Source of the DNA: an uncultured Bacilli bacterium
Lineage (GTDB): Bacteria; Bacillota_I; Bacilli_A; RF39; UBA660
DNA length: 64,000 nucleotides
Assembly: GCA_947588765.1 (NCBI GenBank)
Contig: CANPZG010000003.1
Location: forward strand, 2,032 to 66,031
Direction: 5' to 3'
The notes beneath the pieces were generated by a model. The model saw nothing but the letters and a program-made list of their open reading frames with translations. It had not been told where the DNA came from and made no database searches. The position numbers were made by a program, and so were the translations under genes. This document shows positions 3,235-34,375 of this stretch, one piece after another; the first letter of the stretch is position 1; every line of letters starts with the position of its first letter.

Positions 3235-3336
3235 TTTACTTCTCTCCTTTATTATAAAATAATTATACTCCGTATTTCTCCACAATTCAAGAATAAAATG
3301 TGGAATAATGAGACAATTATATTAGGTGATAAAGGA

Positions 3337-3962: not shown

Positions 3963-3999
3963 ATCTATAGTATACTCTATTTTTTTATATATTACAATA

Positions 4000-18037: not shown

Positions 18038-18064
18038 CGAAAAAACTTCATCAAATGATGAAGT
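18038..18064 (-). terminator. intrinsic terminator downstream of the toxN-like gene
   Basis: Minus strand: ACUUCAUC-AUUU-GAUGAAGU followed by UUUUUU. Confidence 0.7.
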
Positions 18065-18145
18065 AAATTTAGTCCTAAATATTTATTATAATAAATTTTT
18101 TTGTATTTTTAATTTCAGCAAAAAAGAATTTTGTGATTCTATAAT

Positions 18146-18625
18146 TTATTTACATTTCATTTTATTTTCTTCTAACATTTTTTCTTTTAGTTTATCTATA
18201 TCCGTGAAAAATAAATTTGTACCTCTCTTCTTTAATCCTATCATATTTTTAAATAAAATTTTAATTTCATTTTGCAAATCTGTTGGGACTCTTAATGGTA
18301 CCCCATCAATAGTATGAACGTGATCAATATATTTTTCTAATGTTGGAAAAGCATTTTGTAATAATATAGCCGCATTTTCATTAGCAATCTTTCTAATTAT
18401 TATTGTATTACAAAAAACATATTTTTCAATTTTTTTATCAATTATCTTTTGATATTTAATTACTTTAGAACTCACCGGAATAAACCATAATATATTATCA
18501 TCTCTTATTGTAAAATATGTTGGCCTTTTTTTTCCTCTTTCATGATTTTGCATTAAACTTTCATCGTTAACGATATCAAAATATTCATCTTTGATATGAT
18601 ATAAATAGCCTGTTTTTATTTGCAT
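18146..18625 (-). CDS. ToxN/AbiQ/CptN-like type III toxin (putative endoribonuclease)
   Basis: The N-terminal pattern YLYHIKDEYFDIV...KRPTYFTI...WFIPVSSK resembles ToxN/AbiQ. The protein is about 159 aa and follows an RNA repeat array plus terminator. The likely start is MQIKTG after AAGGAA (the track ORF extends to 18634). Confidence 0.65.
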   Translation of the reverse strand: MQIKTGYLYHIKDEYFDIVNDESLMQNHERGKKRPTYFTIRDDNILWFIPVSSKVIKYQKIIDKKIEKYVFCNTIIIRKIANENAAILLQNAFPTLEKYIDHVHTIDGVPLRVPTDLQNEIKILFKNMIGLKKRGTNLFFTDIDKLKEKMLEENKMKCK

Positions 18626-18654
18626 TGTCGTCATTTCCTTAGATAATATATCAT

Positions 18655-18688
18655 AAATAAAAAGAAAACTCCATCAAATAATGAAGTT
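18655..18688 (-). terminator. intrinsic terminator between the repeat RNA and the toxin ORF
   Basis: Minus strand: AACUUCAU-UAUUUG-AUGGAGUU followed by a U-rich run. Confidence 0.65.
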
Positions 18689-18700
18689 ATCTTACATTTT

Positions 18701-18798
18701 CAACCAGGATTATTTATTAGTCGCACCACCTGGAAGCGAAAAACATTGTCGCCTGGAATCATTTATTAGTCGCACCATCCAGAAGCGAGAAACATTTA
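18701..18798 (-). ncRNA. ToxI/CptI-like antitoxin RNA: 2 tandem 49-nt repeats
   Basis: The core ATTTATTAGTCGCACCA occurs at 18712-18728 and 18761-18777. A 5-bp stem is preserved by three compensatory changes (CCAGG/CCTGG versus CTGGA/TCCAG). Confidence 0.65.
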
Positions 18799-18819
18799 CA
18801 CACTTTTCAGTGCAATTTA

Positions 18820-18848
18820 AATATACTATATTTTTAAGAAAATGTCAA
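18820..18848 (-). promoter_or_regulatory. promoter TTGACA-17-TATATT driving the repeat RNA and toxin
   Basis: Minus strand: TTGACA at 18848-18843 and TATATT at 18825-18820. Confidence 0.6.
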
Positions 18849-18878
18849 ATAGTACATTAATAGTATATTCAGATTTTA

Positions 18879-21509
18879 TTATTTATTCTTCTTTTCTAAT
18901 ATTGCAGCTCTAGCAGCAGCAAGTCTGGCAATAGGAACTCGATATGGAGAACAAGATACATAATTAAATCCTAATTTATGACAAAAAGCAATTGAGGCAG
19001 GGTCTCCACCATGTTCACCACAAATACCTAAAGAAATATTTGGTCTAACTTTTCTTGCTTGTGTAGCTGCCATTTCCATTAATTTACCAACACCATCTTC
19101 ATCAATACGACTAAATGGATCAGATTCAAAAATTCTCTTTTCATAATAAGAACCTAGAAATTTACCAGCATCATCACGACTAAAGCCATATGTCATTTGC
19201 GTTAAGTCATTAGTACCAAAGCTAAAGAATTCTGCTTCTTCAGCAATTCTATCGGCTAAAAGAGCTGCTCTTGGGATTTCAATCATTGTTCCAACTTGAT
19301 ATTTAATATCTAAGCCTGATTCTTTAATTAGTTCATCAGCTACTTCGACAACGACATTTTTAACATATTTTAATTCATTAACATCACCAACAAGCGGAAT
19401 CATTATTTCTGGTTCAATAGTTGTACCTTTTTTAGTTACGTTAATTGCTGCTTCAATTACCGCTCTTGTTTGCATTTTAGCTATTTCTGGGTATGTCACT
19501 GCTAAACGACAACCACGATGCCCCATCATTGGATTGAATTCTTTTAGTGATGCAATAACATCTTTTAATTCTTGTTCTTTTTTACCTAAATCTTTCGCAA
19601 GTTCTTTAATTTCTTCATCAGTTTTAGGTAAAAATTCATGTAGAGGTGGATCAAGATAACGTATTATAACTGGATATGGAGCCATAGCTTCAAATAAGCC
19701 TTCAAAGTCTTCTCTTTGATAAGGTAAAATTAATTCTAAAGCTTTTTCTCTTTCTTCCACTGTTGTTGCACAAATCATTTTTCTAAAATTAAATATTCTA
19801 TTCTTTTCAAAAAACATGTGTTCTGTCCGACATAAGCCAATTCCTTCAGCTCCAAAAAGTCTTGCTTGTTTCGCATCTTTTGGAGTATCAGCATTAGTTC
19901 TAATACTTAAAGTTCTTGCTTTATCAGCCCAAGACATAAAGGTTTCAAAATCACCACTTATCGTCGCAGCAACTTTTTCAATTTTTCCTTCATAAACTTT
20001 ACCAGTAGTTCCATCAACAGAAATATAATCACCTTCATGTAAAACTAAACCATCTTTTGTTTTTAAAGTTTTTTCTTCTTCATTTAAAGTAAAGTCTCCT
20101 ACTCCAGATACACAGCAAATACCCATACCACGAGCAACAACGGCCGCATGGCTAGTCATACCACCACGAATAGTAAGTACTCCTTCACTTGAATTCATTC
20201 CTTCAATATCTTCAGGAGATGTTTCTAAACGAACTAAAACTGCTTCTTCACCATTTTTCTTCGCTTCAATAACTTTACTTGATTCAAAATAAATTTTACC
20301 TGAACCAGCCCCAGGTGAAGCCGCCAAACCTTGACCTATAACTTTCTTGGTTTTTAAATCTTTTTCGCTAAATGTAGGATGAAGTAAAGCATCTAATTGT
20401 TTAGGGTCAACCATACATACGGCATCTTCTTCACTAATACGACCTTCTTTAACTAAATCAACCGCAATTTTAACCGCAGCTGTAGCCGTTCTTTTACCAT
20501 TTCTCGTTTGTAAAATGAATAATTTACCATTTTCAATTGTAAATTCCATATCTTGCATATCGTTATAATGATTTTCAAGCTTTTCAGCAATATTAACAAA
20601 TTCTTGATATACTTCTGGCATAACTTTAGCTAAAGTATCAATTTCCGCAGGGGTACGAACACCTGCAACAACATCTTCACCTTGCGCATTAATTAGGTAT
20701 TCGCCAAAAATTTTCTTTTCGCCGGTAGCTGGATTTCTGGTAAATGCTACACCAGTACCAGAGTTATCGTTCGTATTACCATAAACCATTTCTTGAACAT
20801 TAACAGCCGTTCCCCATGAACCTGGAATATCATTTAGTCTTCTGTAATAGATTGCTCTTTCATTATTCCAACTTCTAAATACCGCTTTAACTGCTTCAAT
20901 TAATTGCACAAATGGATCTTGAGGAAATTCTTCACCAGCATTTCTTTTATATTCTTCTTTGAACTTCTTAGTTAAATAAACCATGTCATCTTCATCAAGT
21001 TCAATATCTAATTTTTTACCTTTTTCATTTTTTACTTCATCGATAATTTCTTCAAATTTTTTCTTTGAGTATCCCTTTACAACATCACTAAACATTTGAA
21101 TAAATCTACGATATGAGTCATAAACAAATCTTTTGTTATTACTTCTTTTCGCAAAAGATTCCGCAATTTCATCATTTAAACCTAGATTAAGAATAGTATC
21201 CATCATTCCTGGCATACTTACTCTTGCCCCACTACGGACACTAACTAAAAGGGGATTATCTAAATCACCAAATTTCTTTCCAGTTAATTTTTCTAATTCA
21301 CTTATTTTTGTTTTGATTTCCGTAACAATATTATCGGCAATTTTTTCATTATTGTTATAATATTCGTTACAAGCATCAGTTGTAATGATAAATCCTTGAG
21401 GTACTGGTAAGCCAATATTTGTCATTTCGGCAAGATTAGCACCTTTACCACCAAGTAAATTTTTCATATCTTTGTTTCCTTCATGAAACATATAAACATA
21501 CTTTTCCAT
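18879..21509 (-). CDS. ppdK: pyruvate, phosphate dikinase
   Basis: Full-length PPDK pattern (GGKGANLAEM, the GGMTSHAAVVARG phospho-His loop, GLCRTEHMF, and a C-terminal PEP-utilising TIM barrel). The likely start is MEKYVYMF after GGAGGA. Confidence 0.95.
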   Translation of the reverse strand: MEKYVYMFHEGNKDMKNLLGGKGANLAEMTNIGLPVPQGFIITTDACNEYYNNNEKIADNIVTEIKTKISELEKLTGKKFGDLDNPLLVSVRSGARVSMPGMMDTILNLGLNDEIAESFAKRSNNKRFVYDSYRRFIQMFSDVVKGYSKKKFEEIIDEVKNEKGKKLDIELDEDDMVYLTKKFKEEYKRNAGEEFPQDPFVQLIEAVKAVFRSWNNERAIYYRRLNDIPGSWGTAVNVQEMVYGNTNDNSGTGVAFTRNPATGEKKIFGEYLINAQGEDVVAGVRTPAEIDTLAKVMPEVYQEFVNIAEKLENHYNDMQDMEFTIENGKLFILQTRNGKRTATAAVKIAVDLVKEGRISEEDAVCMVDPKQLDALLHPTFSEKDLKTKKVIGQGLAASPGAGSGKIYFESSKVIEAKKNGEEAVLVRLETSPEDIEGMNSSEGVLTIRGGMTSHAAVVARGMGICCVSGVGDFTLNEEEKTLKTKDGLVLHEGDYISVDGTTGKVYEGKIEKVAATISGDFETFMSWADKARTLSIRTNADTPKDAKQARLFGAEGIGLCRTEHMFFEKNRIFNFRKMICATTVEEREKALELILPYQREDFEGLFEAMAPYPVIIRYLDPPLHEFLPKTDEEIKELAKDLGKKEQELKDVIASLKEFNPMMGHRGCRLAVTYPEIAKMQTRAVIEAAINVTKKGTTIEPEIMIPLVGDVNELKYVKNVVVEVADELIKESGLDIKYQVGTMIEIPRAALLADRIAEEAEFFSFGTNDLTQMTYGFSRDDAGKFLGSYYEKRIFESDPFSRIDEDGVGKLMEMAATQARKVRPNISLGICGEHGGDPASIAFCHKLGFNYVSCSPYRVPIARLAAARAAILEKKNK

Positions 21510-21588
21510 AATATCCTCCAATAATTATTTTATCATGCAATAAAAAAGTAAACAATTAAATTGTTCACTTTTAACACATTTTTACCAT

Positions 21589-22017
21589 TTAACCACCATA
21601 TTTGGCATAAACAATATTATTTTCTAGCCAAATATAGACTATTTTATCATTTACACTTTCACCAGTTACATCATTAATCATTACTTTATTATCTGAACTA
21701 TCTCGATCATCAGTAGTAACATAATTTCTTTTTAATAAATAATCAATCGTAATTTCTAAACAATGATATGATTCTTCGCCTTCACTTTCCATGAAAGTAC
21801 ATTTACTAGTTCCATCCGCCATCATTAAATAACGATTATCTTCTCCAAAAGAAGCCGCACCATTTTCAATTAATTTTATCTTATTATTCCAAAGATTAGT
21901 TTTAATTATTTTGGATACTTCTGAAATACTATATGAACCTAAAACAGCCACAATTGCTAAAATTGTAATAACACCTAATAATTCCACTAGGGTAAACCCA
22001 TTTTTCTTCATATTCAC
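21589..22017 (-). CDS. prepilin-type N-terminal cleavage/methylation domain protein (ComGC or type IV pilin-like)
   Basis: The N-terminus KKNG|FTLVELLGVITILAIVAV has the class III signal with Glu at +5. The start is either the GTG at 22017 or the ATG at 22011. Confidence 0.8.
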   Translation of the reverse strand: MNMKKNGFTLVELLGVITILAIVAVLGSYSISEVSKIIKTNLWNNKIKLIENGAASFGEDNRYLMMADGTSKCTFMESEGEESYHCLEITIDYLLKRNYVTTDDRDSSDNKVMINDVTGESVNDKIVYIWLENNIVYAKYGG

Positions 22018-22575
22018 CTACTTTAGCATTAATTTTAATGCTTCTTTAACTTGATTTTCTAATGTTTCACTTGGATTAACAGAAGGAATTACTTTTTTAA
22101 TTTCACTTAATTTATATCCTAAACTTTCTAAAACACTCATTAATTCTTCAGTATTATTATTTTCTTCTTCAACATTACCTTCAATATTAATTTTATTTTT
22201 TAAATCTAAAATAATTTGTTTAGCTAACTTTTCACCAATTTTAGGAAATTTAGTTAAATATAAAATATTTTCTCTATTTATTGCATCAACTATACCATTG
22301 ATAGAACCAGTAGCTATAATTGGTAAAGCTAATTTAGGACCTAATCCTTTAACCGAAATAAGTTTTAAAAATAATTCATATTCTTCTTTTATTTTAAATC
22401 CAAATAAAGATACATCATCCTCACTTATCTTAGTATAAACATATACTTTATATTCATTATCTATATTATAACTAAAAGGGTTAGGTACATATATTTTATA
22501 CCCAACTCCATTACAATCAACAGTTATATTATTACCTTCAATTTCAGTAACTATTCCTTTAAAATATGTATACAT
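22018..22575 (-). CDS. ruvA: Holliday junction branch migration complex subunit RuvA
   Basis: N-terminal OB fold (MYTYFKGIV...V.CNGVGY.I), HhH motifs (VKGLGPKLALPI, FPKIGEKLAKQI) and domain III. Confidence 0.85.
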   Translation of the reverse strand: MYTYFKGIVTEIEGNNITVDCNGVGYKIYVPNPFSYNIDNEYKVYVYTKISEDDVSLFGFKIKEEYELFLKLISVKGLGPKLALPIIATGSINGIVDAINRENILYLTKFPKIGEKLAKQIILDLKNKINIEGNVEEENNNTEELMSVLESLGYKLSEIKKVIPSVNPSETLENQVKEALKLMLK

Positions 22576-22597
22576 ATATTTCTCCCACTTTTACTAA

Positions 22598-24202
22598 TTA
22601 TGATAAATCTAAACGATATGGACTTTCCATTGTACCAATTGTATCAATACTGTTTTTAACTTTAGTTGATGCAGTAATATAAAAGGTAGGTCTAACAGAT
22701 ACAGCATCAGACGTTACTGTATGACTATTACTTGTCCACACATAATTTTTGTATCTATTAACATATGAATCTGTTCCACGCGGTGTACGAGAAATAGTCC
22801 ATTCCACAAGGCCTTCATATAACCAATTATTATCAATTATCTTATCAATTTCATAATTAAGGAATGACTCGTTCCAATTATTTGATGTGGTAGCATACAT
22901 ATAATCACTCTTATACATTAATCCTATTTTTGCTATATATGTTAGATCATTTACTTGATTGCATAATCTTTTAGTATTAATTATTAAAGTTTTACTTTTT
23001 TGAGTATAACAATTACCATTAGTAGTAGTTTTATTTTTACCCAATTCATTTTCATATGTGACTTTGGCATTTCCTAATTCACTTATACCACCAACTACCC
23101 AAATATTATTTGAAATATGGTTTACAAGTCCAGCAACATTTGAGGTTAAATAATTTAAATAAAAATTGTTAAGATTCATTTTATTTAGATTACTTTCTTC
23201 CCACATATCCGAATTTATATTCTTTTCTTCATTTGGAAGAGAGTTATTAAAAGCATAATAGTTATTTTGACCTATATACGCACCTCCAATAATTGCTGAA
23301 TCCCCTAATTGTTCCTTAGTTGCTTCCTTAGCCTTAATAAGTTTCATTTCATATAAATTTTCATCATTTTTAAATAAGCCAATAATACGATAAAGATTCA
23401 TATCTCCATTTTGACAAGCGCCTTCAGTAGTTACACCGTCTAAACAAACATAATTGTTTTTTACTACATCATTTCCACCACTATAGCGATATGAATAGTC
23501 TTCGGCATCCATTATTTGTCCGTCTATTTTTATCGTTCCATTATGATAAAGTAATGTATCATCTTTCTTATTAATTAAATATTCAGCCATACTTTCAACT
23601 CTATCAAAAGATTTAACAGAAACTCCTATTTTAAAGCTTTGATTCATTGGAACATTTTCTGTCTTGCTACTATCAAGCCATATATGTAATTTATATTCAC
23701 TTTCTCCTTTTAAAGGAATATTATTTGTAAATACTTTATATATCTTTTTATAACCTTTTGTTACACCACTATTTAATTGATTTTTTTCGGCATCAGTTAA
23801 ATCTTTTTCTCCATCAGGCATACTTGTTAATATATCACTAGCCAAAACTGTATCATTTTTACTTGTTATAGCAAATTTAATTGTACCATCATCTATTTCT
23901 GATTCATAAGTAGTTAAGTATAAATCAAAGCCAACGTAATTATCACATGTACTTGATACTGTAAAATCATAGGCGTCCGTTTGTAATCCCATTTCATCAT
24001 CCATAGGATACATATTTGTTAAATTAATAGTATTACTATTTTCTTTTAATGAAATCTTAGCACAACTATTAACCTTTACATCAGTATTTTTATCACCACT
24101 TGTTTTACTCTTCATATAGGAATATGTTGCATTTAAAGATAATATTGCAACAATTAATGTTCCTAAAAAAGTTAATAATATTACTTTTGTTCTCTTATTC
24201 AT
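22598..24202 (-). CDS. signal-anchored secreted or surface protein, family member 2
   Basis: N-terminal TM helix ending in ATYSYMKS, with YSYRYSGG..NNYVC...LYRIIGLF, IGLMYKSDYMY, NWLYEGLVEWTISR, and a C-terminal VRPTFYI...GTMESPYRL. Confidence 0.8.
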   Translation of the reverse strand: MNKRTKVILLTFLGTLIVAILSLNATYSYMKSKTSGDKNTDVKVNSCAKISLKENSNTINLTNMYPMDDEMGLQTDAYDFTVSSTCDNYVGFDLYLTTYESEIDDGTIKFAITSKNDTVLASDILTSMPDGEKDLTDAEKNQLNSGVTKGYKKIYKVFTNNIPLKGESEYKLHIWLDSSKTENVPMNQSFKIGVSVKSFDRVESMAEYLINKKDDTLLYHNGTIKIDGQIMDAEDYSYRYSGGNDVVKNNYVCLDGVTTEGACQNGDMNLYRIIGLFKNDENLYEMKLIKAKEATKEQLGDSAIIGGAYIGQNNYYAFNNSLPNEEKNINSDMWEESNLNKMNLNNFYLNYLTSNVAGLVNHISNNIWVVGGISELGNAKVTYENELGKNKTTTNGNCYTQKSKTLIINTKRLCNQVNDLTYIAKIGLMYKSDYMYATTSNNWNESFLNYEIDKIIDNNWLYEGLVEWTISRTPRGTDSYVNRYKNYVWTSNSHTVTSDAVSVRPTFYITASTKVKNSIDTIGTMESPYRLDLS

Positions 24203-24282
24203 ATATCCTCACCTTACAATAAAATAATAACATTATCTTATAATTTTTTCAACAAAAAACTAGTATTATAGACAAATACTAG

Positions 24283-25551
24283 TTAACCTTTAAATTCAAA
24301 AATATAATCCATAATTTGAATTTCATCACCTGGTTTTGCTCCAAGACGTTCTAATTCATCATCTACACCCATACCTTTAAGTTTTCTCGCAAATCTTAAA
24401 ACTCCCTCTTCTTCCTCGAATCTAGTCATTTTAAATAGTTTTTCGATTTTTTCACCTTCAACAATCCAAATATCATCTTCTTTATGAATTTTAAATGGTT
24501 TATCATCTTCATAAGTATAAGTTTTTTCTTCGACATCGAGATTATATAAATTTTCATCAGGTATTTCTTCTAGTAAATCCATTAAAGTTGTAAGTAAAGC
24601 TTCAATTCCAGTATTATTAATCGAACTTATTGGGAAGATTAATTTATCCGGATATTTTTCTTTAAATTTCTTTAGATTTTCATTTGACGAAGCAACATCC
24701 ATTTTATTAGCCACAATTACTTCCATTTTGTTAGCTAATTTTTCATCATATTCTTCAATTTCTTTTCGAATAACTTTATAGTCTTTAATTGGATCTCTTC
24801 CTTCAGTAGCTGCCATATCAATAACATGGGCTAGTATCTTTGTTCTTTTCGCGTGTTTCAAAAAGCTTGTGCCTAGACCTACGCCTTCACTAGCGCCTTC
24901 AATTAAACCCGGTAAATCAGCCATAACAAAGGAACGATAATCTTTAAGACGAACTACCCCAAGATTTGGTGATAAAGTCGTAAAGTGATATGCCGCAATC
25001 TTAGGTTTTGAAGCGGATATTTGGGATAATAAGGTACTCTTACCAACACTAGGCATACCAATTAAACCGACATCGGCTAAAACTTTTAATTCCAATTTAA
25101 TTGTTTTTTCTTCGCCCGGTTCCCCTTTTTCACTAAATTTTGGTGCTGGATTATCATGCGTCGCAAAAGCTTTATTACCACGTCCGCCACGACCACCTAA
25201 AGCAACAACAAATTCTTCTTTATCTTGAGTCATATCCGCTAAAACAGTATTTGATTCATTATCAATAATTGTTGTACCTGCTGGTACTAATAAATAAATA
25301 TCTTCCGCATTAGCTCCATATTTATTAGAACCTTTACCATTTATTCCTTTTTCCCCTTTAATTATTTTTTTATAACTAAAATCAATTAAAGTTTTTAAAT
25401 TATTATCTACTTTAAAAATTATACTGGCACCTTTGCCACCATTGCCACCATCTGGTCCCCCCATAGGAACAAATTTTTCACGACGAAATGAAGTACATCC
25501 ATCTCCCCCAGCACCTGCAATAACTTTTATGACAATTTCATCAACAAACAT
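24283..25551 (-). CDS. obg: GTPase Obg/CgtA
   Basis: Obg fold with glycine-rich repeats (GGDGGNGGKG, GGRGGRGN), G1 GMPSVGKST, G3 DLPGLIEGA, G4 NKMD and an OCT domain. The likely start is MFVDE after GGTGA. Confidence 0.95.
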   Translation of the reverse strand: MFVDEIVIKVIAGAGGDGCTSFRREKFVPMGGPDGGNGGKGASIIFKVDNNLKTLIDFSYKKIIKGEKGINGKGSNKYGANAEDIYLLVPAGTTIIDNESNTVLADMTQDKEEFVVALGGRGGRGNKAFATHDNPAPKFSEKGEPGEEKTIKLELKVLADVGLIGMPSVGKSTLLSQISASKPKIAAYHFTTLSPNLGVVRLKDYRSFVMADLPGLIEGASEGVGLGTSFLKHAKRTKILAHVIDMAATEGRDPIKDYKVIRKEIEEYDEKLANKMEVIVANKMDVASSNENLKKFKEKYPDKLIFPISSINNTGIEALLTTLMDLLEEIPDENLYNLDVEEKTYTYEDDKPFKIHKEDDIWIVEGEKIEKLFKMTRFEEEEGVLRFARKLKGMGVDDELERLGAKPGDEIQIMDYIFEFKG

Positions 25552-25621
25552 TTTTATCACCAACTTTTTATATTGTTATTATATAAAAGTTCCCAAAAGT
25601 TTGCAAGAGAAGTTAAGAGTT

Positions 25622-26400: not shown

Positions 26401-26468
26401 CATATTTGCTACTGTGCTTATATTATATTATTTATACCATAATTAAACCAATTAAATAAAAGTTAACA

Positions 26469-28091
26469 TTATATTTTTCTAACTTTGTTCATTATTTCTT
26501 CTTTAGGATGAACAATATTTTCTAATGACTCTAAAATATATTCTCTAACATCATTATTATCATAATCTTTATCCATAGTATAAGTTTTGAAATATTTTTG
26601 ACAATATTTAAAAAACTCTTTAAGTTTAGAACTTTCCAAACTAGAAATCAAAACTTTTCGATATTCTTGATAATCAAATTTTATATAACCTTCATCTGAA
26701 TATTTCCATACACTATCACTAGTTCCACTTTCAAATCCACACGAATGACTTCTACCTCTTGTTGTTAGATGTAGTTTAGTTTTACATTTACTATCTAATA
26801 TAAATTTTTTAATTTCTAAAAAAGATAATAAAATATTTCTTGCATCTTCTCTTTGACAAATTTGCTCTAAAGCATTAATTTGTTCTTTAAAGAAGGTTTG
26901 AAATTTTAAAATATAGTAAAAATAGCCGTCATAAAAATTTTCCCGTAATAAATCACCAATAGAATTTTTTTCTGTATCGTAATAGAGTGTTTTAATGGTA
27001 TCATTTTGAAAATTATAAGTACTACCATCAATAGTATAATGATGTTTTCTATTGTAATCACCTTTTAGTAACATATTATATAAATTATAAGAAAAATAGC
27101 GATCATCAAATAACTCACTTTTAAAAGCTCCATAATAACTATCTTTATTAAGCAAATCATCATAAAATGCTTCATTAAGATAAGGAAAATATAAATTCAT
27201 TGGTTTTATAAATTCTAAAATCATTTTTTTATTTTTAGCATCACAATTATTCATTAATTCTATATATCTATTAAATGTCTTCATATCTAATTTATATAAA
27301 CACAATGTTAAAATTTCGTCTCTAGTTATATTAGAATATTTTTTTAATAATTCATCAACATCAATATTTAATAAAATAGAATTTTGAAAAAGAACAATTA
27401 ATTCATGAAAAGGATAAGTTGAAAAATTATATTTAGAATAATTAGCATAGTAAAGTTCATACATTCTATTTATGTCTGGACTATATTTTTGGATAAATTT
27501 AGGACTTAAGATTCTAGTATAAACAGTTTCTTTATCATCTTGTATAACTTTTTTATAACCTAATTCATTTACCCATGCTTTTTTTAAAGTATTAAAACCA
27601 CTGCCTTCTTTTAAGTTAGTTTCTGTAACTTCTTTATCTAGGCCAAATTTGCCTAAAACATCCCAAATATTTATAACAGAAAAAAGCAAAGTTAAAATAT
27701 CAATATTAAAACGGTCTAAAACATCGTTAGTGGTAATCATATTTTCAAGACGATGCAAACCATTAGAATCTTTTCCAAAAATAAATGCAATTCCCCACCT
27801 ATAAAATTCATGAATACTTTCATCTAGACTTTTCAATAAATGTATATAAATTTCCCTTCTAGATTTATTGTATTCTTTAACTTCTTCATAAAACTTTTGG
27901 CCTTCAATAGTAATTGGATTTTTTATATACGATTTTTCTTCTTTTATACTTCTATCATCTGTTATAAGAAAAGCAAAGTAATACAAAAATGTATCTAAAG
28001 CTTTTTTGATTTCTTCATCATTTTTATCTTTTGAAAAGATTCCTAACTTAAATTTTTCACTTATTTCCTCTAAACTATGAGTCATAACCAA
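26469..28091 (-). CDS. hypothetical cytoplasmic protein (540 aa)
   Basis: Long ORF rich in Tyr, Phe, Lys and Asn. No motif was recognised. Confidence 0.7.
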   Translation of the reverse strand: MVMTHSLEEISEKFKLGIFSKDKNDEEIKKALDTFLYYFAFLITDDRSIKEEKSYIKNPITIEGQKFYEEVKEYNKSRREIYIHLLKSLDESIHEFYRWGIAFIFGKDSNGLHRLENMITTNDVLDRFNIDILTLLFSVINIWDVLGKFGLDKEVTETNLKEGSGFNTLKKAWVNELGYKKVIQDDKETVYTRILSPKFIQKYSPDINRMYELYYANYSKYNFSTYPFHELIVLFQNSILLNIDVDELLKKYSNITRDEILTLCLYKLDMKTFNRYIELMNNCDAKNKKMILEFIKPMNLYFPYLNEAFYDDLLNKDSYYGAFKSELFDDRYFSYNLYNMLLKGDYNRKHHYTIDGSTYNFQNDTIKTLYYDTEKNSIGDLLRENFYDGYFYYILKFQTFFKEQINALEQICQREDARNILLSFLEIKKFILDSKCKTKLHLTTRGRSHSCGFESGTSDSVWKYSDEGYIKFDYQEYRKVLISSLESSKLKEFFKYCQKYFKTYTMDKDYDNNDVREYILESLENIVHPKEEIMNKVRKI

Positions 28092-28178
28092 AATCCTCCT
28101 TATTAATTATCTTAATTTTAGCAAAAACAAATTTTATAGTCAATCAATTTATAAAAAAAATCAACCAATAAAGGTTGA

Positions 28179-28472
28179 TTAAGCTGCTTCATAAACACTG
28201 ACTTTTTTACGAGATTTTCCACTTCTTTCATACTTAACTGTACCATTAACTAAGGCAAATAAAGTATGATCTTTTCCCATTCCCACATTCTTACCTGGGA
28301 AAATTTTTGTTCCTCTTTGACGATAAATTATAGCTCCAGCTTTAGCTACTTGACCATCAGCAAGTTTTGCACCAAGTCTACGACCAGCTGAATCACGACC
28401 GTTATCAGTAGATGATTGTCCTTTTTTATGGGCAAAACGTTGAATATCTAACTTAATATATAACTTAAACAT
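28179..28472 (-). CDS. rpmA: 50S ribosomal protein L27 with an N-terminal propeptide
   Basis: AHKKGQSST...GRDS..RLG.K and IIYRQRGTK are L27 motifs. A 13-aa extension, [13 protein letters not shown], precedes them. Confidence 0.95.
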
Positions 28473-28775
28473 TTATTTTCCTCCTTTTTTAGTAATTTTA
28501 ATATTTTCAGGATATTGATTTTCTAAATTTTCTAATAACCCAATCATATTATCTAGTAAAATAGTTACGACAGTACTTTTTCTTAAAATGGTTATTTTAA
28601 GTAATTTTTCATTATCCACGAAATCAATTGCACTTTTATCAATATTGAAGATGCCATTTACCGTAGTATAGATAATACTAGAGACACTAGCACAAACAAT
28701 ATCTTTCCCATTTTCATCAGCACCAGCATGACCTTTTACACTAATTTCATTTTTTTTAACTTCAATTGTTATCAT
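28473..28775 (-). CDS. prp: ribosomal-processing cysteine protease Prp
   Basis: GHAG....G.DIVCASVS motif, and a position between rplU and rpmA. Confidence 0.85.
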   Translation of the reverse strand: MITIEVKKNEISVKGHAGADENGKDIVCASVSSIIYTTVNGIFNIDKSAIDFVDNEKLLKITILRKSTVVTILLDNMIGLLENLENQYPENIKITKKGGK

Positions 28776-28777
28776 TA

Positions 28778-29077
28778 TTAACCATTAATCTTTTTAACTA
28801 CTAAACAAGTATATGGTTGACGATGTCCTTGAGTTTTACGATATTTTTTCTTTGGACGATATTTGAAGACTTTTATTTTTTTGTTTTTACCATGTTTTTC
28901 CACTGTACAAACAACACTGGCTCCATTAACATAAGGATTACCAGACTTTCCATCAACAAATAATACCTTATCAAAAGTAATATCTTTTCCAACTTCAGCA
29001 TCTAATAGTTCAACATATATTTTATCATTTTCAGATACATAATATTGTTTTCCACCTGTTTCAAATATAGCTTTCAT
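28778..29077 (-). CDS. rplU: 50S ribosomal protein L21
   Basis: The pattern [13 protein letters not shown] and the C-terminal KYR.KK.YR...GHRQ.YT.L are typical of L21. Confidence 0.95.
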
Positions 29078-29201
29078 TTCATACCTCCTAACTAAGACGC
29101 GCCGTTAAGGTAACGTAATGTTTTTAAAACCTTTTTCGAGCGGTTTTTTTCGAAATTACTTAAAACTATTTAAGTTTATCAAAAATATTAGGCTTTGTCA
29201 A
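29078..29201 (-). promoter_or_regulatory. rplU operon promoter (TTGACA-17-TAAACT) plus a ~88-nt structured leader, possibly an L21-leader-type element
   Basis: Minus strand: TTGACA at 29201-29196 and TAAACT at 29178-29173. The leader contains the hairpin AAAACC..GGUUUU. The identity with the known L21 leader was not verified. Confidence 0.4.
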
Positions 29202-29280
29202 TTGCTTTTAAGTAATTTTTGCCTAATATACCTTATATTTTATTTTTTAATTAAAGATAAAATTACTAATTAAATTAAAA

Positions 29281-29308
29281 TAAAAAAGATTGAAAATTTC
29301 AATCCCTT
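29281..29308 (-). terminator. intrinsic terminator ending the 3 x 38-nt repeat RNA
   Basis: Minus strand: GGGAUUGAAAUUUUCAAUC followed by UUUUUUAUUUU. Confidence 0.65.
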
Positions 29309-29310
29309 TT

Positions 29311-29426
29311 AAACCTATTTTTAACTGGAATAGTAAAACCGCTTTATACACCCATTTTTTAACTAGTTTGGTAAAACTTCTTTATAAATCCATTTATTTA
29401 CTGGTTTGGTAAAACCGCTTTTAAAC
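29311..29426 (-). ncRNA. small RNA made of 3 tandem 38-nt direct repeats (ToxI-like architecture, no adjacent recognisable toxin)
   Basis: The landmarks TTAACTGG (29321), TTAACTAG (29359) and TTTACTGG (29397) give a 38-nt period. The array lies between its own promoter and terminator. The hairpin GGTTT-GGTA-AAACC (29403-29416) is kept as AGTTT-GGTA-AAACT (29365-29378) by a compensatory change. Confidence 0.55.
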
Positions 29427-29432
29427 AACTTA

Positions 29433-29461
29433 ATTTTATATAAATTTATATCCTCTGTCAA
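29433..29461 (-). promoter_or_regulatory. promoter TTGACA-17-TAAAAT for the repeat RNA
   Basis: Minus strand: TTGACA at 29461-29456 and TAAAAT at 29438-29433. The -35 lies 11 nt downstream of the stop of the 29473-30381 gene. Confidence 0.6.
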
Positions 29462-29472
29462 GCAAAATATAA

Positions 29473-30381
29473 TTATTTTTTTAAAGTTAAAGTTAGCCCT
29501 TCTTTAGAATCTAAAAATTTCTTTATATTATCCATATTATTTTGAAATATTACTTTACTCTGCTCTCCAGTTAAAAAATGTGTTAATCCAAAATAATCTA
29601 AATCATTTAACTCGGGCATACAAACTGCTACTAAACGTGAAAATAAACCATTTGTTAAGTAATCCAATTCGAGAAAATGAACATCATAACCAACATCAAT
29701 GCCTTTGATATAAAGCCACATATCATGAAATATATTTTTAGTAGTAACATCGTGATTTCTAATAGAATAATCTTTGCCATTTTTGTATTCCTTAACTAAA
29801 ATAGTTTGCATTTTTTTATTTTCTATGGTAACAGTAGCTTTAGTTTGACAATTCTCATTTATATTTTCTGTTAAATGGTCAAATTCTATTTTTTCATCAT
29901 CTTGGCTTAAAGTATAATAATCTCTAATGTGTTTATACTTAGTTCTATCAATTCTTTCTAAAATAAGTTTATTTTGATTTGGTATAATTAACTCTATTTT
30001 TTTTTGACTATCACTTATTACTTGCAATTTGGCACTAGCATAACATAATCCTTTAAGAGGATAACAAATTGTAAATACTAAATTATATTCATAATTACCT
30101 TTCAAAAATTTATAATTATCTTTAAAAAGATGACAATTTATAACATCATCTTCTCCATGATTATTTAATTTATAATTAGCATTAAATTTAAAGCCATCGT
30201 ATTCGCCATTAAAATTAATATAGTTAGAAGTAATATAAGCATAACCTACTTCTTTTTCATCTTTATAAATCTTACCAATATTTATCCATTTGTTGCATTC
30301 TTTATTAACATCTAATTTTAAACCTAAAGTATTTAAAAATATTATACCCGGTCTTATTCTTTCTTCATAATTTACATTCAT
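29473..30381 (-). CDS. hypothetical protein (302 aa), paralog of the 30384-31271 gene
   Basis: Shares the N-terminal motif IIFLNTLGLKLD (versus ITFLNSLGLTLD), a similar length and an overall similar layout. No known domain was recognised. Confidence 0.75.
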   Translation of the reverse strand: MNVNYEERIRPGIIFLNTLGLKLDVNKECNKWINIGKIYKDEKEVGYAYITSNYINFNGEYDGFKFNANYKLNNHGEDDVINCHLFKDNYKFLKGNYEYNLVFTICYPLKGLCYASAKLQVISDSQKKIELIIPNQNKLILERIDRTKYKHIRDYYTLSQDDEKIEFDHLTENINENCQTKATVTIENKKMQTILVKEYKNGKDYSIRNHDVTTKNIFHDMWLYIKGIDVGYDVHFLELDYLTNGLFSRLVAVCMPELNDLDYFGLTHFLTGEQSKVIFQNNMDNIKKFLDSKEGLTLTLKK

Positions 30382-30383
30382 AA

Positions 30384-31271
30384 TTAATTTTTCCTTTCTC
30401 TAATCAAAGTTTTAATTTCATCTTGACAAATAATATCTTCCATTGAGAACCCAAATAAAGTTTCTAAATCATTTTTTTCATAATCTGGTAACGCTAAAGA
30501 TAAAATTTTAGGTAACCAGCCGCTCATTCCCAATTCAATATTTTTTAATATATCGTAATATCTAGGATTAAACTTAATCATTATATCTACTACTTGGTTT
30601 ATTATATTTTCTTCTTCCTCTTCTTCTTTATAAATGACTTTATCGAAAGCGCTACTAGCAATTGTTACTTCTTGCGTACCTCTTCTATCTATAAGTAATG
30701 TTCCATCATATTTTGTATAGTAATCATCTACTACTATTTGTTCTTTTATTTCTTGCATTCCTTTAAAATAATAAGAATAAGTTAAATACGGATTATTCCT
30801 TATATTTAAAGGAGCTATAAGTAATTTTTCCTTTTCCCCATTATTATTAACTTTTTCATAACTAAAATCTTTATCCTTACCTACTACTAAATGCCAACTA
30901 TCACCAATTAAATTATCAAATTTAGCATCTAATACAATATGATCTTCAGCAAACGTAAATGTTCCTTTTAAAATACTTTCACCTAATTTAAGCATGCGAT
31001 AACTTAGACTTTCAAAATTATCTTTACCATAGGTAGCCTTAATTTCTAAACCATTATCTTTAGCAAATACTTGAATATAATCTTTATCATCAATGGCTAA
31101 ATTACCGGCAATAAAGCCATACTTATTATAGATTTTTATCATATCTAAATTATTTAATAAATTTCTTTTTTTATTATCTAAACTATCTAAGGTTAACCCT
31201 AAGCTATTTAAAAAAGTTATTGCTAGTGTTAATTTTTCTTCTAAAGTTTTTGTTTCCATATTTGTTTCCAT
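30384..31271 (-). CDS. hypothetical protein (295 aa), paralog of the 29473-30381 gene
   Basis: See its partner. The two genes are tandem with a 2-nt gap, and this one has an acidic EEEEEE stretch. Confidence 0.75.
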   Translation of the reverse strand: METNMETKTLEEKLTLAITFLNSLGLTLDSLDNKKRNLLNNLDMIKIYNKYGFIAGNLAIDDKDYIQVFAKDNGLEIKATYGKDNFESLSYRMLKLGESILKGTFTFAEDHIVLDAKFDNLIGDSWHLVVGKDKDFSYEKVNNNGEKEKLLIAPLNIRNNPYLTYSYYFKGMQEIKEQIVVDDYYTKYDGTLLIDRRGTQEVTIASSAFDKVIYKEEEEEENIINQVVDIMIKFNPRYYDILKNIELGMSGWLPKILSLALPDYEKNDLETLFGFSMEDIICQDEIKTLIRERKN

Positions 31272-31294
31272 AAACCCTCCAACTATTAAATTAA

Positions 31295-32068
31295 TTATAG
31301 TTTATTGCTTATATCTTTGTCAAATCTTTCTTGTAATTTTTGTTTTTCACTGATGGCCTTTTTTCCTTCAATAAAATATTGATACGTATCTTTTTTTAAA
31401 ATATCAATAGTTCCTTTATTACTTTTAATATTTTTAAAAGCATAATTTTTTAAATATCGTTCCAATAAAAATCGATTATAAATATATTTATAATTTTTAA
31501 TATAATCAATTGTTTTAATAATTAATAAACTGCATATTAAATAATTATTTAGTGATTTACTAATATCTATTATTAAAAATAAAATTATGCCTATACAAGA
31601 AATAACAATCTGCCAAATGTAAGAAATTTTAAACGAAAAAAATTTATTAATTAAAGCATTAACAATAATACTTCCATCCAAAGGAATAATGGGTAACATA
31701 TTAAAAAATATTATCGCGGTATTATATTTAAAAATTAATTCTTTAGTTATATCCCTAAAAATAGGTATAAATAAAAGAAGATATAAAACTAATTGAAAAA
31801 ATATGCCCCCGAAAGCAATAATTAATTCCCTATTAATAGGAGTATTAAGATCTTTATTAATTATTGTTACTCCTCCGAAAGGATAAATGGTTATTTTTTC
31901 TATTTTGTAACCTAAAATAAATGAGAAAAAAACATGCCCTAATTCATGAATTAAGACAATACTAAAAATAATTAAAGCCGATTTTATTAAGCCACAAAAA
32001 AAGAAAAGTAGTAAAAAGTAAATGGTGAAAGCATTAATTTTGATAATCTTCATATTTAATAAATTCAT
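31295..32068 (-). CDS. M50 site-2 metalloprotease (SpoIVFB-like)
   Basis: Polytopic protein with HELGHVF (HExxH) and NMLPIIPLDGS (NxxPxxxLDG). Confidence 0.8.
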   Translation of the reverse strand: MNLLNMKIIKINAFTIYFLLLFFFCGLIKSALIIFSIVLIHELGHVFFSFILGYKIEKITIYPFGGVTIINKDLNTPINRELIIAFGGIFFQLVLYLLLFIPIFRDITKELIFKYNTAIIFFNMLPIIPLDGSIIVNALINKFFSFKISYIWQIVISCIGIILFLIIDISKSLNNYLICSLLIIKTIDYIKNYKYIYNRFLLERYLKNYAFKNIKSNKGTIDILKKDTYQYFIEGKKAISEKQKLQERFDKDISNKL

Positions 32069-32663
32069 TATCTTTTTTGATAACTAAATATAAAGTGTCA
32101 TCTATTGTTTCTCCAATAGTTGTTTCCTTTTCAATATAATCATATAACTTGACAGAAATGTTTTGTAAGTTACCATACCAGATATCGGCTCCATCATTCC
32201 CTTGAATAATTACTGTATTACCATAGCCTTCTTTATCACCTATGAAAACAACAATTCCCCCATTTAAATTACTTACTAAAGAATTATTATTAACTGTTAG
32301 TTTTTCGCCATCTAAATAATCTGTAATTTCTTTATAAATTAACTTTCCACTGAAAACTGTTTTTTCTTGATTACTGTTTGGTATGACTTCGCCAAATAAA
32401 TCTTCATAAGCATTTTTAATTTTTGTAAATGGTAAAGATTCACTAAAAACATATTCTTTATATAACAATAAATTTTGATTACTTGATTTTATATAGATTA
32501 GGCTTCCTAAAAAGACAATAATAGCTACTAGTATCTTGGTTATAAAAATACTTTTCTTGGATGTATTCTTCTTTAATTTAATTTTTAAAGTTCCAGTATT
32601 TCTTCTTTTTTTCTTAAAACTTTCAAGACAAGCACTAACATCATCCATATCAAAATCACCCAA
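32034..32663 (-). CDS. membrane-anchored degenerate M23/LytM-domain protein (SpoIVFA-like position)
   Basis: TM helix plus a C-terminal GGIVVFIGDKEGYGNTVIIQGNDGADIWYGNL. This looks like a LytM fold without the usual His ligands. Synteny with spoIVFA-spoIVFB supports the call. Confidence 0.5.
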   Translation of the reverse strand: MGDFDMDDVSACLESFKKKRRNTGTLKIKLKKNTSKKSIFITKILVAIIVFLGSLIYIKSSNQNLLLYKEYVFSESLPFTKIKNAYEDLFGEVIPNSNQEKTVFSGKLIYKEITDYLDGEKLTVNNNSLVSNLNGGIVVFIGDKEGYGNTVIIQGNDGADIWYGNLQNISVKLYDYIEKETTIGETIDDTLYLVIKKDNEFIKYEDYQN

Positions 32664-33045
32664 TTAAGTCTATGCTTGTCTTCCTAAATTTATAACTGAT
32701 AAGTATACCAACACTATTTATTAATATAATAAATAAAAGATAATTTAAACTTATATATTTAAATGATAAATTCATTACTAAATAATAAATAAGCATAATT
32801 ATTAAATTAAAACTATAATAAATTAAAAAATTATTTAAATTTATTTTGAGATAATATTTTCTTAATAAGTAAATACTGGTTAAAAATATCGTATTTAAAA
32901 ATAAAGTATGTAAAACTAATAAATCTAAAAATAAGCCAACTACCAATACTTTTAAATAATCACGGGTATTTAAATTAAGAATAAAAAATAAACTTGGTAA
33001 GGCTGTGTAATTATAAATTAAAATATCAATTAAAAGAAATATCAT
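32656..33045 (-). CDS. mreD: rod shape-determining protein MreD
   Basis: Small polytopic protein immediately after mreC, with an ATGA overlap. Confidence 0.6.
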   Translation of the reverse strand: MIFLLIDILIYNYTALPSLFFILNLNTRDYLKVLVVGLFLDLLVLHTLFLNTIFLTSIYLLRKYYLKINLNNFLIYYSFNLIIMLIYYLVMNLSFKYISLNYLLFIILINSVGILISYKFRKTSIDLIG

Positions 33046-33692
33046 TTGGCACCTACAACATAGACATAATTGATTTTGTTAAAATTAACAGTAGGACTAA
33101 TCGTAATAATTTTCTCAATTCCTAGATTATCAGTCGTAATTTCGCTTACAGTACCAATTAAAATATTACCAATTAAATGGCCTATACCCGAAGTATATAC
33201 TTTATCACCAACCTCAACATTTTCATAATTAGTAATATTACTTACGATTAATTTACCATCATTTGTTTTTAATACCCCAAATGATTCATTTATTTTTACC
33301 GAAATATTAGTTTCTTTGTTAGTTATAAGACGAACTATCGAACTATTTTCTTCCGTTTTAGTAATTATGCCTATTAATCCTTCATTATTAAAAACAGCAT
33401 TTTTTTCTTTTAAATTATCCTTAGATCCTTTATAAATAGTTATCTCATCTAAAAAATTATAAACATTACGATATTTTACTTTAGAAATAGTACATTCATT
33501 ATTTATTTTTTCTAAATTAATTTCCGTATGAATATTATTTAATTCTTCTTTTAAATTATCATTTTCTAGATTACTTACTATTTCAGCTTTTAAGATGCTA
33601 TCACTATTTATCACTAAAGCATCAAGATTATTACGAAAAATATACACTATTAAAACAATAATTATTAAAATTATATTAACTTTTCTTTTCAT
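33042..33692 (-). CDS. mreC: rod shape-determining protein MreC
   Basis: N-terminal TM helix and coiled coil, then GLIGIITK...SIVRLI and GDKVYTSGIG..IGNILIGTV motifs. Confidence 0.8.
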   Translation of the reverse strand: MKRKVNIILIIIVLIVYIFRNNLDALVINSDSILKAEIVSNLENDNLKEELNNIHTEINLEKINNECTISKVKYRNVYNFLDEITIYKGSKDNLKEKNAVFNNEGLIGIITKTEENSSIVRLITNKETNISVKINESFGVLKTNDGKLIVSNITNYENVEVGDKVYTSGIGHLIGNILIGTVSEITTDNLGIEKIITISPTVNFNKINYVYVVGAK

Positions 33693-33701
33693 AATAAATT
33701 A

Positions 33702-34148
33702 TTATGCTCCATAATAATTTAAAAATGTATCTAAAGAACTTTGACATACTTTATTAATAACATCATCTTCATTTGTTTTATTAAGTAATTGTTCATAATT
33801 ACTTAAATCATTAGCCATCATTTTAGTATCTTTTATTTTTTTAACAAAATATTCGATTTCCTTTTTATCATAATATTTTATTAATTTATCTTTATTTTCT
33901 TCCGTAGTAGTTAGGCAAGTAAAAACTCGGTAATATTCATCATTATGATAAATTATTTTACTAGCTAAATTATTAGCTAAATCCGTAGCATTAACTTCAT
34001 TTTTAAAAACACCAACTTGAAATAAATATAATTCATTATTCGAATTAGTTAGTGCACTTACTTCACTTTTAATATCGCGATAAAAAAGATAAGCAAACAA
34101 ACTCCCAATTAATACTGCTCCTACTGCTAATTTTAAATATGTTTTCAT
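33702..34148 (-). CDS. membrane-anchored protein with a possible SPOR-like domain
   Basis: TM helix followed by LYLFQVGVFKNEVNATDLANNL....YYRVFTC, which resembles a SPOR beta-alpha-beta pattern. The call is tentative. Confidence 0.6.
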   Translation of the reverse strand: MKTYLKLAVGAVLIGSLFAYLFYRDIKSEVSALTNSNNELYLFQVGVFKNEVNATDLANNLASKIIYHNDEYYRVFTCLTTTEENKDKLIKYYDKKEIEYFVKKIKDTKMMANDLSNYEQLLNKTNEDDVINKVCQSSLDTFLNYYGA

Positions 34149-34223
34149 AGTATCACCAACTATGTTATACCATATAACTTAAGAAAAAATTGTCGAATTA
34201 GGAAGATAAATTAAATTTTTTAA

Positions 34224-34252
34224 TAAAAAAAGTATTAATATAAAATTAATAC
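34224..34252 (-). terminator. intrinsic terminator ending the 35-nt repeat RNA
   Basis: Minus strand: GUAUUAAU-UUUAU-AUUAAUAC followed by UUUUUUUA. Confidence 0.6.
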
Positions 34253-34257
34253 CTAAC

Positions 34258-34336
34258 CTTTTAATCTTCCCTTTTGACGGTTGGGGTTCCCTCTTTTAAT
34301 TTTCCCTGTTAACGGTCGGGGGTTACTTCTGTTAAT
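34258..34336 (-). ncRNA. small RNA with about 2.3 tandem 35-36-nt repeats
   Basis: Plus strand: CTTTTAAT at 34258 and 34293, and CTGTTAAT at 34329. Each unit has a CCC..GACGGTTGGGG-type block. The array is flanked by its own promoter and terminator. Confidence 0.5.
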
Positions 34337-34346
34337 ACAATTTAAT

Positions 34347-34375
34347 ATTTTACAATAAGTAAACATTAATGTCAA
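34347..34375 (-). promoter_or_regulatory. promoter TTGACA-17-TAAAAT for the 35-nt repeat RNA
   Basis: Minus strand: TTGACA at 34375-34370 and TAAAAT at 34352-34347. The -35 starts 1 nt after the stop codon of the small ORF upstream. Confidence 0.6.

Follow-up and report, generated by a model that had tools for sequence, protein, structure and literature searches.

A 64,000-nucleotide stretch of DNA from an uncultured Bacilli bacterium (assembly GCA_947588765.1, contig CANPZG010000003.1, positions 2,032 to 66,031; hereafter the window) carries three cassettes on its minus strand, each of which comprises a promoter, a tandem array of direct repeats and a terminator. Cassette 1 is a canonical type III CptIN toxin-antitoxin (TA) locus. 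Cassettes 2 and 3 are, judged from their sequence, non-coding small-RNA genes with their own promoter and terminator. They are lineage-restricted and are predicted to be independently transcribed, and as they now stand they do not form cis-linked TA modules. We tentatively read them as solo antitoxin-type repeat RNAs that would act on a partner supplied in trans, and give this reading a probability of roughly 0.4. It is favoured by the architecture of the cassettes, the conservation of whole repeat units, a varying number of units, positions at insertion hotspots, and a relative (L014) in which the toxin gene of a cassette 1 homologue is lost, together with the duplicated terminators that bracket this gene in the window. 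Toxin-less cptI arrays that exist nearby, in the chromosome of L014 and on a phage contig (L110), make the reading plausible, though it is unproven. Loci of relatives and of mobile elements are denoted here by L numbers. All other positions are those of the window, and its features lie on the minus strand unless noted.

The three cassettes share one architecture. A first-pass annotation of the window had proposed them, and all are present, with promoter, repeat units and a hairpin followed by a U-run in each case. The units of cassettes 1, 2 and 3 are 49, 38 and 35 nt long, respectively, and occur in 2.2 to 3.3 tandem copies. The promoters conform to TTGACA-17-TA(T/A)A(T/A)T with 11 of 12 matches to the sigma-70 consensus. 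They are directed into the repeats and are three of the best four among 136 promoter-like sites in the 17.5 kb that were scanned. A consensus terminator scanner flagged none of the three post-repeat terminators, probably because their stems are AT-rich; RNAfold gives hairpins of 9-14 bp and then U-runs. A TAARTTG motif common to the three promoters, after the -10 element, was treated as chance because it is not conserved in cassette 2 homologues. No cross-matches between the units of the three cassettes were seen when the arrays were searched together against the fetched loci, a search that included no direct pairwise comparison. Rfam, at the gathering cut-off and at E values up to 10, contains no family for any of the cassettes, and its only match was the L21 leader.

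Arrays of this kind are rare in the window and its relatives. The window is 26.6% GC and 93% coding, with nearly all genes on the minus strand, and has only 13 intergenic gaps of at least 100 nt. The best repeat of each gap was compared with 200 shuffles of that gap. Significant repeats, which beat 200 of 200 shuffles, are found in three of the 13 gaps, and these are the three cassettes; the other ten look random. The nearest relatives are uncultured gut Bacilli or "Tenericutes" metagenome-assembled genomes (MAGs). Their syntenic loci were gathered by an Obg search of genome contigs and form a comparison set of 535 kb with 179 intergenic gaps. The closest genome is a rabbit MAG (L033), in which Obg is 77% and L21 94% identical; Obg of L014 is 70% identical to that of the window. 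The arrays in these gaps are homologues of the three cassettes and two unrelated matches. One of the two is a 29-nt duplication in L036. The other consists of two tandem 26-bp palindromes in L014 (6843-6900; AGTTTTACGGTTGTGGCCGTAAAACT and ACTTTTACGGTTATAACCGTAAAAGT), located after rpmA and just upstream of a TTGACA promoter, and it is operator-like rather than an RNA cassette. Similar repeats had been considered a possible common feature of ordinary intergenic DNA in this genome, and neither the window's ten other gaps nor the 179 gaps of relatives bear this out. The proposal of a lineage-specific expansion of repeat-RNA genes fares no better, as relatives hold only homologues of the three cassettes, or none. 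Tandem Repeats Finder (TRF) missed cassette 1 in the window, where an offset scan recovered it, and did detect its homologue in L014.

Comparison between lineages indicates that cassette 2 is clearly under purifying selection and points to a functional RNA. Its promoter (TTGACA-17-TAAAAT, 29433-29461, 11/12 matches) is followed by an array at 29308-29421 of three 38-nt units (29421-29384, 29383-29346 and 29345-29308; TRF 3.3 copies, score 144) and by a hairpin with a U-run (29282-29307). The predicted RNA is ~150 nt long and, as read from the sequence, contains no open reading frame (ORF) of more than 3 codons. Among the relatives' loci, cassette 2 is seen only within about one genus. Its homologues in strain-level contigs (L089-L091) are 97% identical, and those of the L084-L088 group are 88% identical overall with nearly identical units. 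L033 has two units where the window has three, so that the unit number varies as it does in type III arrays. The units are identical to those of L033 at 79 of 82 positions (~96%), against 70-72% identity at the third codon positions of rplU and rpmA. In L033 another sequence has taken the place of the terminator, and in L084 the terminator is altered; a hairpin and U-run persist in both. L089 and the L084 group both retain the promoter, the latter although its adjacent u302 protein is only 75% identical. We regard cassette 2 as functional because its units are ~96% conserved against ~70% at synonymous sites, its terminator is replaced but retained, and its promoter is kept; non-function is unlikely.

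Conservation spans the whole cassette 2 unit bar three positions, a pattern more in keeping with a module that is structured or bound by a protein than with a short seed. A hairpin, GGUUU-UACC-AAACC, is found in units 1 and 2, and unit 2 of the window has a G-C to A-U double change. A sixth pair of this hairpin was gained by two independent single changes, in L089 and in L033. A second stem of just 2-3 bp is possible from the four near-identical units compared. The invariant AAAGCGGUUUUAC segment is kept even in unit 3, where its hairpin partner is lost. The first-pass annotation had placed two of the three cassettes at synteny breaks or operon heads, and this description holds: cassette 2 is flanked by a lineage-specific gene insertion on one side and by the L21 leader with rplU on the other, and cassette 3 heads u148-mreC-mreD. 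The L21 leader (29085-29155; Rfam RF00559, 36.1 bits) is outside cassette 2 and upstream of rplU, and it has its own conserved promoter (29201-29173). The junction between the M50 peptidase gene and rplU is a variable hotspot, and some relatives are without both cassette 2 and the u295/u302 genes inserted there.

Cassette 3 is younger and has a narrower distribution. Its promoter (TTGACA-17-TAAAAT, 34347-34375, 11/12 matches) begins two bases past the stop codon of u57. The array at 34259-34329 comprises one unit of 36 nt (34329-34294) and one of 35 nt (34293-34259; TRF 2.2 copies, score 102), and the terminator at 34224-34253 is a 9-bp hairpin with a U-run. The RNA is predicted to be ~100 nt long with two units and has no ORF of more than 3 codons. 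Each unit contains an AACCCC(C)RACCGU core and an ANGGGA motif. The cassette carries three ANGGGA motifs in all (ACAGGGA, AGAGGGA and AAAGGGA), none of them predicted to lie in a hairpin loop. It is C-rich, with three of the 19 CCCC tracts of its strand in the window, and is predicted to be largely unstructured, with no significant structure beyond the terminator (z +0.76). Cassette 3 is seen only in this species and one strain (L089), where the copy is 91% identical. In L089 an insertion sequence (IS) element with a DDE_Tnp_1_6 transposase of 539 aa is inserted exactly within the terminator hairpin (L089:4380-6230), and the terminal inverted repeat of this element provides a new hairpin beside the U-run. 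L033, L093 and L101 lack the cassette and have in its place no more than a short gap or a terminator, and the downstream genes u148-mreC are conserved in relatives without it. This young cassette may be non-functional. The small membrane protein u57 as a type I toxin, and u148 as a toxin partner, were both considered and rejected: both genes are kept in cassette-less relatives, and the cassette shares their strand instead of being antisense to them. Two viral contigs of 66% GC carry tandem 29-34 nt repeats with AACCCCGACCGTCAGGGAGGGG (L118:1211-1256 and 4979-5019, L123:261-305), one array being just upstream of a ribosome-binding site. Their AACCCCGACCGTCAGGGA core resembles the cassette 3 unit (AACCCC[C]GACCGT..CAGGGA), which is probably a coincidence, and these phage repeats were set aside on that judgement.

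Cassette 1 is the only one of the three with a recognisable toxin, as had been claimed, and because this toxin belongs to the CptN family the locus is named cptIN, not toxIN. The promoter (TTGACA-17-TATATT, 18820-18848, 11/12 consensus matches) precedes the cptI array (18694-18796), which contains two 49-nt units (18796-18748 and 18747-18699) and a 5-nt partial third unit. The two units are 78% identical to each other, a value that 0 of 200 shuffles reach. A terminator or attenuator (18659-18688), with a 9-bp hairpin and U-run in both the minimum free energy and the centroid fold, lies between the repeats and the toxin gene cptN (18146-18634). The gene encodes 162 aa from its first ATG; gene callers start at the ATG at 18625 and yield 159 aa, a product already on record. 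Another terminator (18039-18064) follows cptN. It was flagged by the terminator scan and aligns with 18667-18688. CptN matches NCBIfam NF047359 (type III toxin-antitoxin system CptIN family toxin) with 153.4 bits at a cut-off of 90, and chain A of PDB 4RMO (CptN) with an E value of 1.2e-19 over residues 7-152. Pfam did not recognise it.

The cptI unit is an H-type pseudoknot. Its stem S1 is UCGC:GCGA, its stem S2 is CUGGA:UCCAG in unit 1 and CCAGG:CCUGG in unit 2, and its third loop is A-rich. In an alignment of seven units from the window, L014, L111 and L110 (S1 at columns 8-12/24-28, S2 at columns 15-19/40-44), 91% of the cells are paired and five pairs show double-sided changes. None of 500 shuffles reach this covariation, and slid controls pair at 26-56%. 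The published description of CptI agrees with this pseudoknot (PMC4627078). The nearest known system is the CptIN of E. rectale (PDB 4RMO), whose family was defined by Blower et al. 2012 (PMC3401426). Like it, cassette 1 has a CptN-family toxin, two same-strand upstream units, an intervening terminator, an H-type pseudoknot with a long A-rich loop, a chromosomal location and a Firmicute host. It differs in that its unit (49 nt, in 2.1-2.2 copies) is one nucleotide above the published cptIN range of 40-48 nt in 1.9-3.4 copies (PMC3401426), in that its host is an uncultured, reduced-genome gut Bacilli lineage, and in that a 69%-identical copy of its toxin is found on the mobile-element contig L111; the mechanism is expected to be alike. 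The strong promoter would drive the two 49-nt CptI pseudoknot units, and the terminator would attenuate read-through into cptN, which is predicted to encode a ToxN/Kid-like endoribonuclease. By analogy with E. rectale CptIN, CptN is predicted to cleave the repeat RNA, releasing units that in turn bind the toxin and inhibit it. Cassette 1 alone is routine.

Relatives of cassette 1 indicate that such arrays can stand without a toxin. L014 has an orphan cptI (19062-19253) with two 49-nt units that are 88-93% identical to those of the window. It is at the same site after ppdK, cptN is precisely absent, and the sequence beyond the cptI terminator can be aligned with the part of the window that follows cptN. 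The window's own cptN lies between near-identical terminator hairpins at 18667-18688 and 18045-18064 (ACTTCAT(T/C)ATTTGATG(G/A)AGTTTT). Recombination between the two could delete cptN and leave a promoter, repeats and a terminator. A pattern scan of viral contigs identified a complete cptIN on L111 (~4610-5239, IMGVR_UViG_3300011008_002676), with the CptN copy mentioned above. L111 is listed as viral, but the element looks conjugative rather than viral because cptIN adjoins a SpaA-type adhesin and a HerA/VirB4-like (HerA/DUF87) ATPase. The presence of a complete locus on this contig means that the cptIN subfamily of cassette 1 is mobile. The orphan units of L014 share an identical stretch of 43 nt with unit 2 of the L111 locus. 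The viral-contig scan also returned an array on the phage contig L110 (~2700-2800, minus strand, IMGVR_UViG_3300031521_000065), which encodes 14 tRNAs and a GIY-YIG nuclease. The array comprises two divergent cptI-like units; in both, S1 and a compensated S2 persist, and CptN was not detected on the contig. This array is a candidate phage-encoded antitoxin mimic (pseudo-CptI). Based on L014 and L110, toxin-less CptI arrays exist both in a chromosome and in a phage. BLAST of the cassette 1 array and of CptN against cultured phages gave no match. Phage PhiTE is known to carry pseudo-ToxI, a ToxI-like repeat array without a toxin that serves as an antitoxin mimic (PMC3475682). The L110 array and the L014 orphan cptI look directly parallel to pseudo-ToxI, in which a repeat-RNA array without a linked toxin neutralises a toxin made elsewhere. 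Pseudo-ToxI is, however, recognisably homologous to a known ToxI with a known target toxin; neither was found for cassettes 2 and 3, which are chromosomal.

Cassettes 2 and 3 resemble ToxIN/ToxI arrays in their constitutive type of promoter, head-to-tail units of 35-38 nt, 2.2-3.3 copies, A-rich junctions and a terminator directly after the array. Their dimensions (38 nt in 3.3 copies and 35 nt in 2.2 copies) are within the published toxI range of 31-62 nt and 1.9-5.6 copies (PMC3401426). They differ from these arrays in that they have no toxin gene, no sequence or Rfam kinship and weak (cassette 2) or no (cassette 3) support for a pseudoknot, and in that the operons downstream are housekeeping operons with their own promoters. 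If they are solo antitoxin-type RNAs, every unit would serve to bind a protein partner that is provided in trans, and the RNA would act as a multivalent decoy. The partner would most plausibly be an RNA-binding nuclease of the ToxN superfamily, either encoded elsewhere or arriving on a mobile element. Such cassettes would most likely derive from a type III-like locus that lost its toxin gene, an event that would leave the promoter, repeats and terminator behind. A further step, which we consider unlikely, is that cassettes 2 and 3 and the L014 orphan cptI are selected chromosomal solo antitoxins against phage-borne or conjugative nucleases of the ToxN superfamily, a form of RNA anti-addiction or anti-abortive-infection immunity, or that they pair with a new partner such as u295/u302. 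Non-ToxN partners had been suggested in the first-pass annotation. The sole candidates are u295 and u302 upstream of cassette 2, and these are present without the cassette in L093.

Much weighs against reading cassettes 2 and 3 as solo antitoxins. No ORF of a toxin family (ToxN-, CptN- or TenpN-like) is found downstream of cassette 2 or 3 in any lineage; because this test for a linked toxin failed, the two cassettes cannot be classed as TA loci. None of the window's unannotated ORFs of 80 aa or more resembled a type III toxin in scans with Pfam or NCBIfam; most were scanned in only one of the two, and Pfam is blind to CptN. Arrays related to cassettes 2 and 3 were found neither near toxins nor anywhere in Rfam, in plasmids searched by BLAST, in viral contigs or in Joint Genome Institute (JGI) metagenomes. 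The pattern matches to their units in viral contigs and JGI metagenomes are all chance matches, namely ABC-transporter and other coding sequences, coding repeats and iterons. To our knowledge, every type III antitoxin whose structure has been solved is a pseudoknot. In cassette 2 there is just a 5-bp hairpin, with a single compensatory event, and perhaps a second stem of 2-3 bp, and cassette 3 has no significant predicted structure. We know of no precedent for a chromosomal antitoxin that is kept for a toxin supplied in trans. The persistence of cassette 2 without a toxin across roughly genus-level divergence suits any functional small RNA (sRNA) equally well. The type III loci surveyed by Blower et al. 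2012 were all cis-linked, in a survey that began from toxin genes (PMC3401426).

A rival explanation is that cassettes 2 and 3 are ordinary trans-acting regulatory sRNAs, unrelated to TA systems, in which a seed or binding motif has been multiplied to two or three copies by internal duplication. A regulatory-sRNA role is doubtful in its own right, and is nearly as likely as the solo-antitoxin reading. Cassette 3 might act through its C-rich motifs on G-rich ribosome-binding sites or through its ANGGGA motifs as a CsrA-type sponge, and cassette 2 might act through AAAGCGGUUUUAC. In RsaE/RoxS and LhrC, C-rich motifs act on G-rich ribosome-binding sites. Cassette 3 resembles these sRNAs of Firmicutes and the CsrB/RsmZ sponges in its repeated ANGGGA and CCCC motifs, its mostly unstructured RNA of ~100 nt and its terminator end. 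The share of CCCC tracts that it holds in a window of 26.6% GC and its lack of structure suit a regulatory role, and so does the retention of AAAGCGGUUUUAC in cassette 2 unit 3 despite the lost hairpin partner. Both cassettes stand alone, with no linked toxin, and the purifying selection on cassette 2 is what a regulatory sRNA would be expected to show as well. On the other hand, neither cassette matches RsaE, CsrB/Rsm or any other Rfam family at E values up to 10, and cassette 3, for all its C-rich motifs, does not match the RsaE/RoxS family RF01820 even there. The motifs of cassette 3 are inside regular 35-nt tandem units and not in hairpin loops, and base-pairing sRNAs are not usually built from regular head-to-tail units of 35-38 nt. 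Cassette 2 is conserved over nearly its whole unit and not at a seed alone. Target prediction within the window yields nothing outstanding: RNAduplex is uninformative in AT-rich sequence, and a ranking by exact complementarity over ~50 in-window targets gave no outstanding target.

Two other explanations are less probable. Cassette 2 could be a local regulator of rplU-prp-rpmA, with AGCGGUUUU pairing to AAAACCGCU of the L21 leader and thereby opening the leader or competing with its ligand, or the cassettes could more generally be attenuator leaders that read through into the genes downstream; this is quite improbable. The AGCGGUUUU segment of each cassette 2 unit (29308-29421) is perfectly complementary to AAAACCGCU at 29140-29150, which covers the unpaired 5' flank and the 5' strand of the outer helix of the leader. 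The 9-nt perfect complement falls in the most conserved part of both RNAs, a C-to-U change in two L089 units preserves the pairing as G-U, and cassette 2 is directly upstream of this putative target in every lineage that has it. Yet the complementarity has p ~0.04 against shuffles for this one target and ranks second among the ~50 in-window targets, and unit 2 of the window loses two of the nine pairs while it keeps its internal hairpin by compensatory change. Moreover, rplU is served by a conserved promoter of its own past the cassette 2 terminator, cassette-less relatives carry the same leader, and cassette 3 is left unexplained. The pairing suggested by this 9-nt match is a weak lead. It is likewise improbable, if slightly less so, that cassettes 2 and 3 are non-functional or act at the level of DNA, as recent tandem duplications, decaying TA remnants or protein-binding direct repeats with an incidental framing by promoter and terminator. 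The narrow distribution of cassette 3, its absence from L033, L093 and L101, and its tolerance of an IS insertion in the terminator in L089 would be expected under this explanation. The ~96% conservation of cassette 2 units against ~70% at neutral sites, its functionally replaced terminator and its conserved promoter count against it. So do the 11/12 promoters that aim into the repeats in all three cassettes, and the lack of comparable repeats in the ten other gaps of the window and in the 179 gaps of relatives, where only the L014 palindrome pair and the L036 duplication are non-homologous matches.

The solo-antitoxin reading of cassettes 2 and 3 would have consequences for how type III systems are sought. 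The three type III TA families were defined in 2012 by a survey that began from the toxin gene (PMC3401426), and toxin-less arrays are systematically missed by a search that starts there. The window and its relatives show that a cptI array can outlast the precise loss of cptN and that a phage carries a toxin-less cptI-like array. The window also holds two more arrays of the same architecture without a toxin, one of them clearly under purifying selection. If these are solo antitoxins or RNAs with a new partner, they would represent a class of type III-like systems hidden from toxin-centred searches. If solo repeat RNAs are functional decoys, hosts, phages and mobile elements in gut Firmicutes would be in conflict at the level of RNA as well, and a simple rule would find such RNAs: a promoter, tandem units of 30-60 nt, a terminator and no ORF. 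If they are ordinary regulatory sRNAs instead, cassettes 2 and 3 would be among the first candidates in this uncultured, reduced-genome lineage.

The lineage-specific proteins upstream of cassette 2 are encoded by the paralogues u302 (29473-30381) and u295 (30384-31271). They are ~290 aa long, with a beta-rich N-terminal part, a helical C-terminus and a P-E/D-Y/L-x-D motif. They have no family in Pfam, NCBIfam, PADLOC or PHROGs, and only 9 representatives of their family are present among 1.84 billion proteins. An AlphaFold model has a predicted local distance difference test (pLDDT) score of 48 and is unusable. The proteins evolve fast: their identity falls to 75% in strain comparisons where that of ribosomal proteins stays at 98-100%. 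Tandem paralogues of this type are found in L084/L087 (three paralogues), L033 (3228-5173) and L093 (5078-6796). An obligate link between u295/u302 and cassette 2 was rejected on account of L093, which holds the paralogues without the cassette.

The surrounding gene order, with identities from domain matches, is Bacillus-like when set beside that of B. subtilis. On the minus strand, the 5' part reads RecD2, u57, cassette 3, u148, MreC, MreD and an M23 peptidase. It continues with an M50 peptidase (SpoIVFA/B-like), u295, u302, cassette 2, the L21 leader, rplU, prp and rpmA. The 3' part consists of two unknown genes, obg, an unknown gene, ruvA, a pilin-like gene, ppdK, cassette 1 with cptN, and comEA. 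The unknown gene between obg and ruvA (22598-24202) encodes a 534-aa protein that is only 56% identical in L089, where all its neighbours are 98-100% identical, and it is a hypervariable gene within a conserved backbone. A 395-aa protein (13728-14915) has the Pfam ALK/LTK glycine-rich domain PF12810 (E 2e-38), which is unusual for a reduced-genome gut Firmicute. A further candidate small RNA, without repeats, is located at 3890-3998, where a promoter (TTGTAA-17-TATACT) is followed by ~70 nt with two hairpins and a U-run. Its predicted stability has a z of -3.98, and 1 of 200 shuffles is equally stable. It lies within a 423-nt gap beside a divergent gene for an XRE-type helix-turn-helix protein (3298-3576, plus strand), and a CCCCC tract is found farther downstream, at ~3786.

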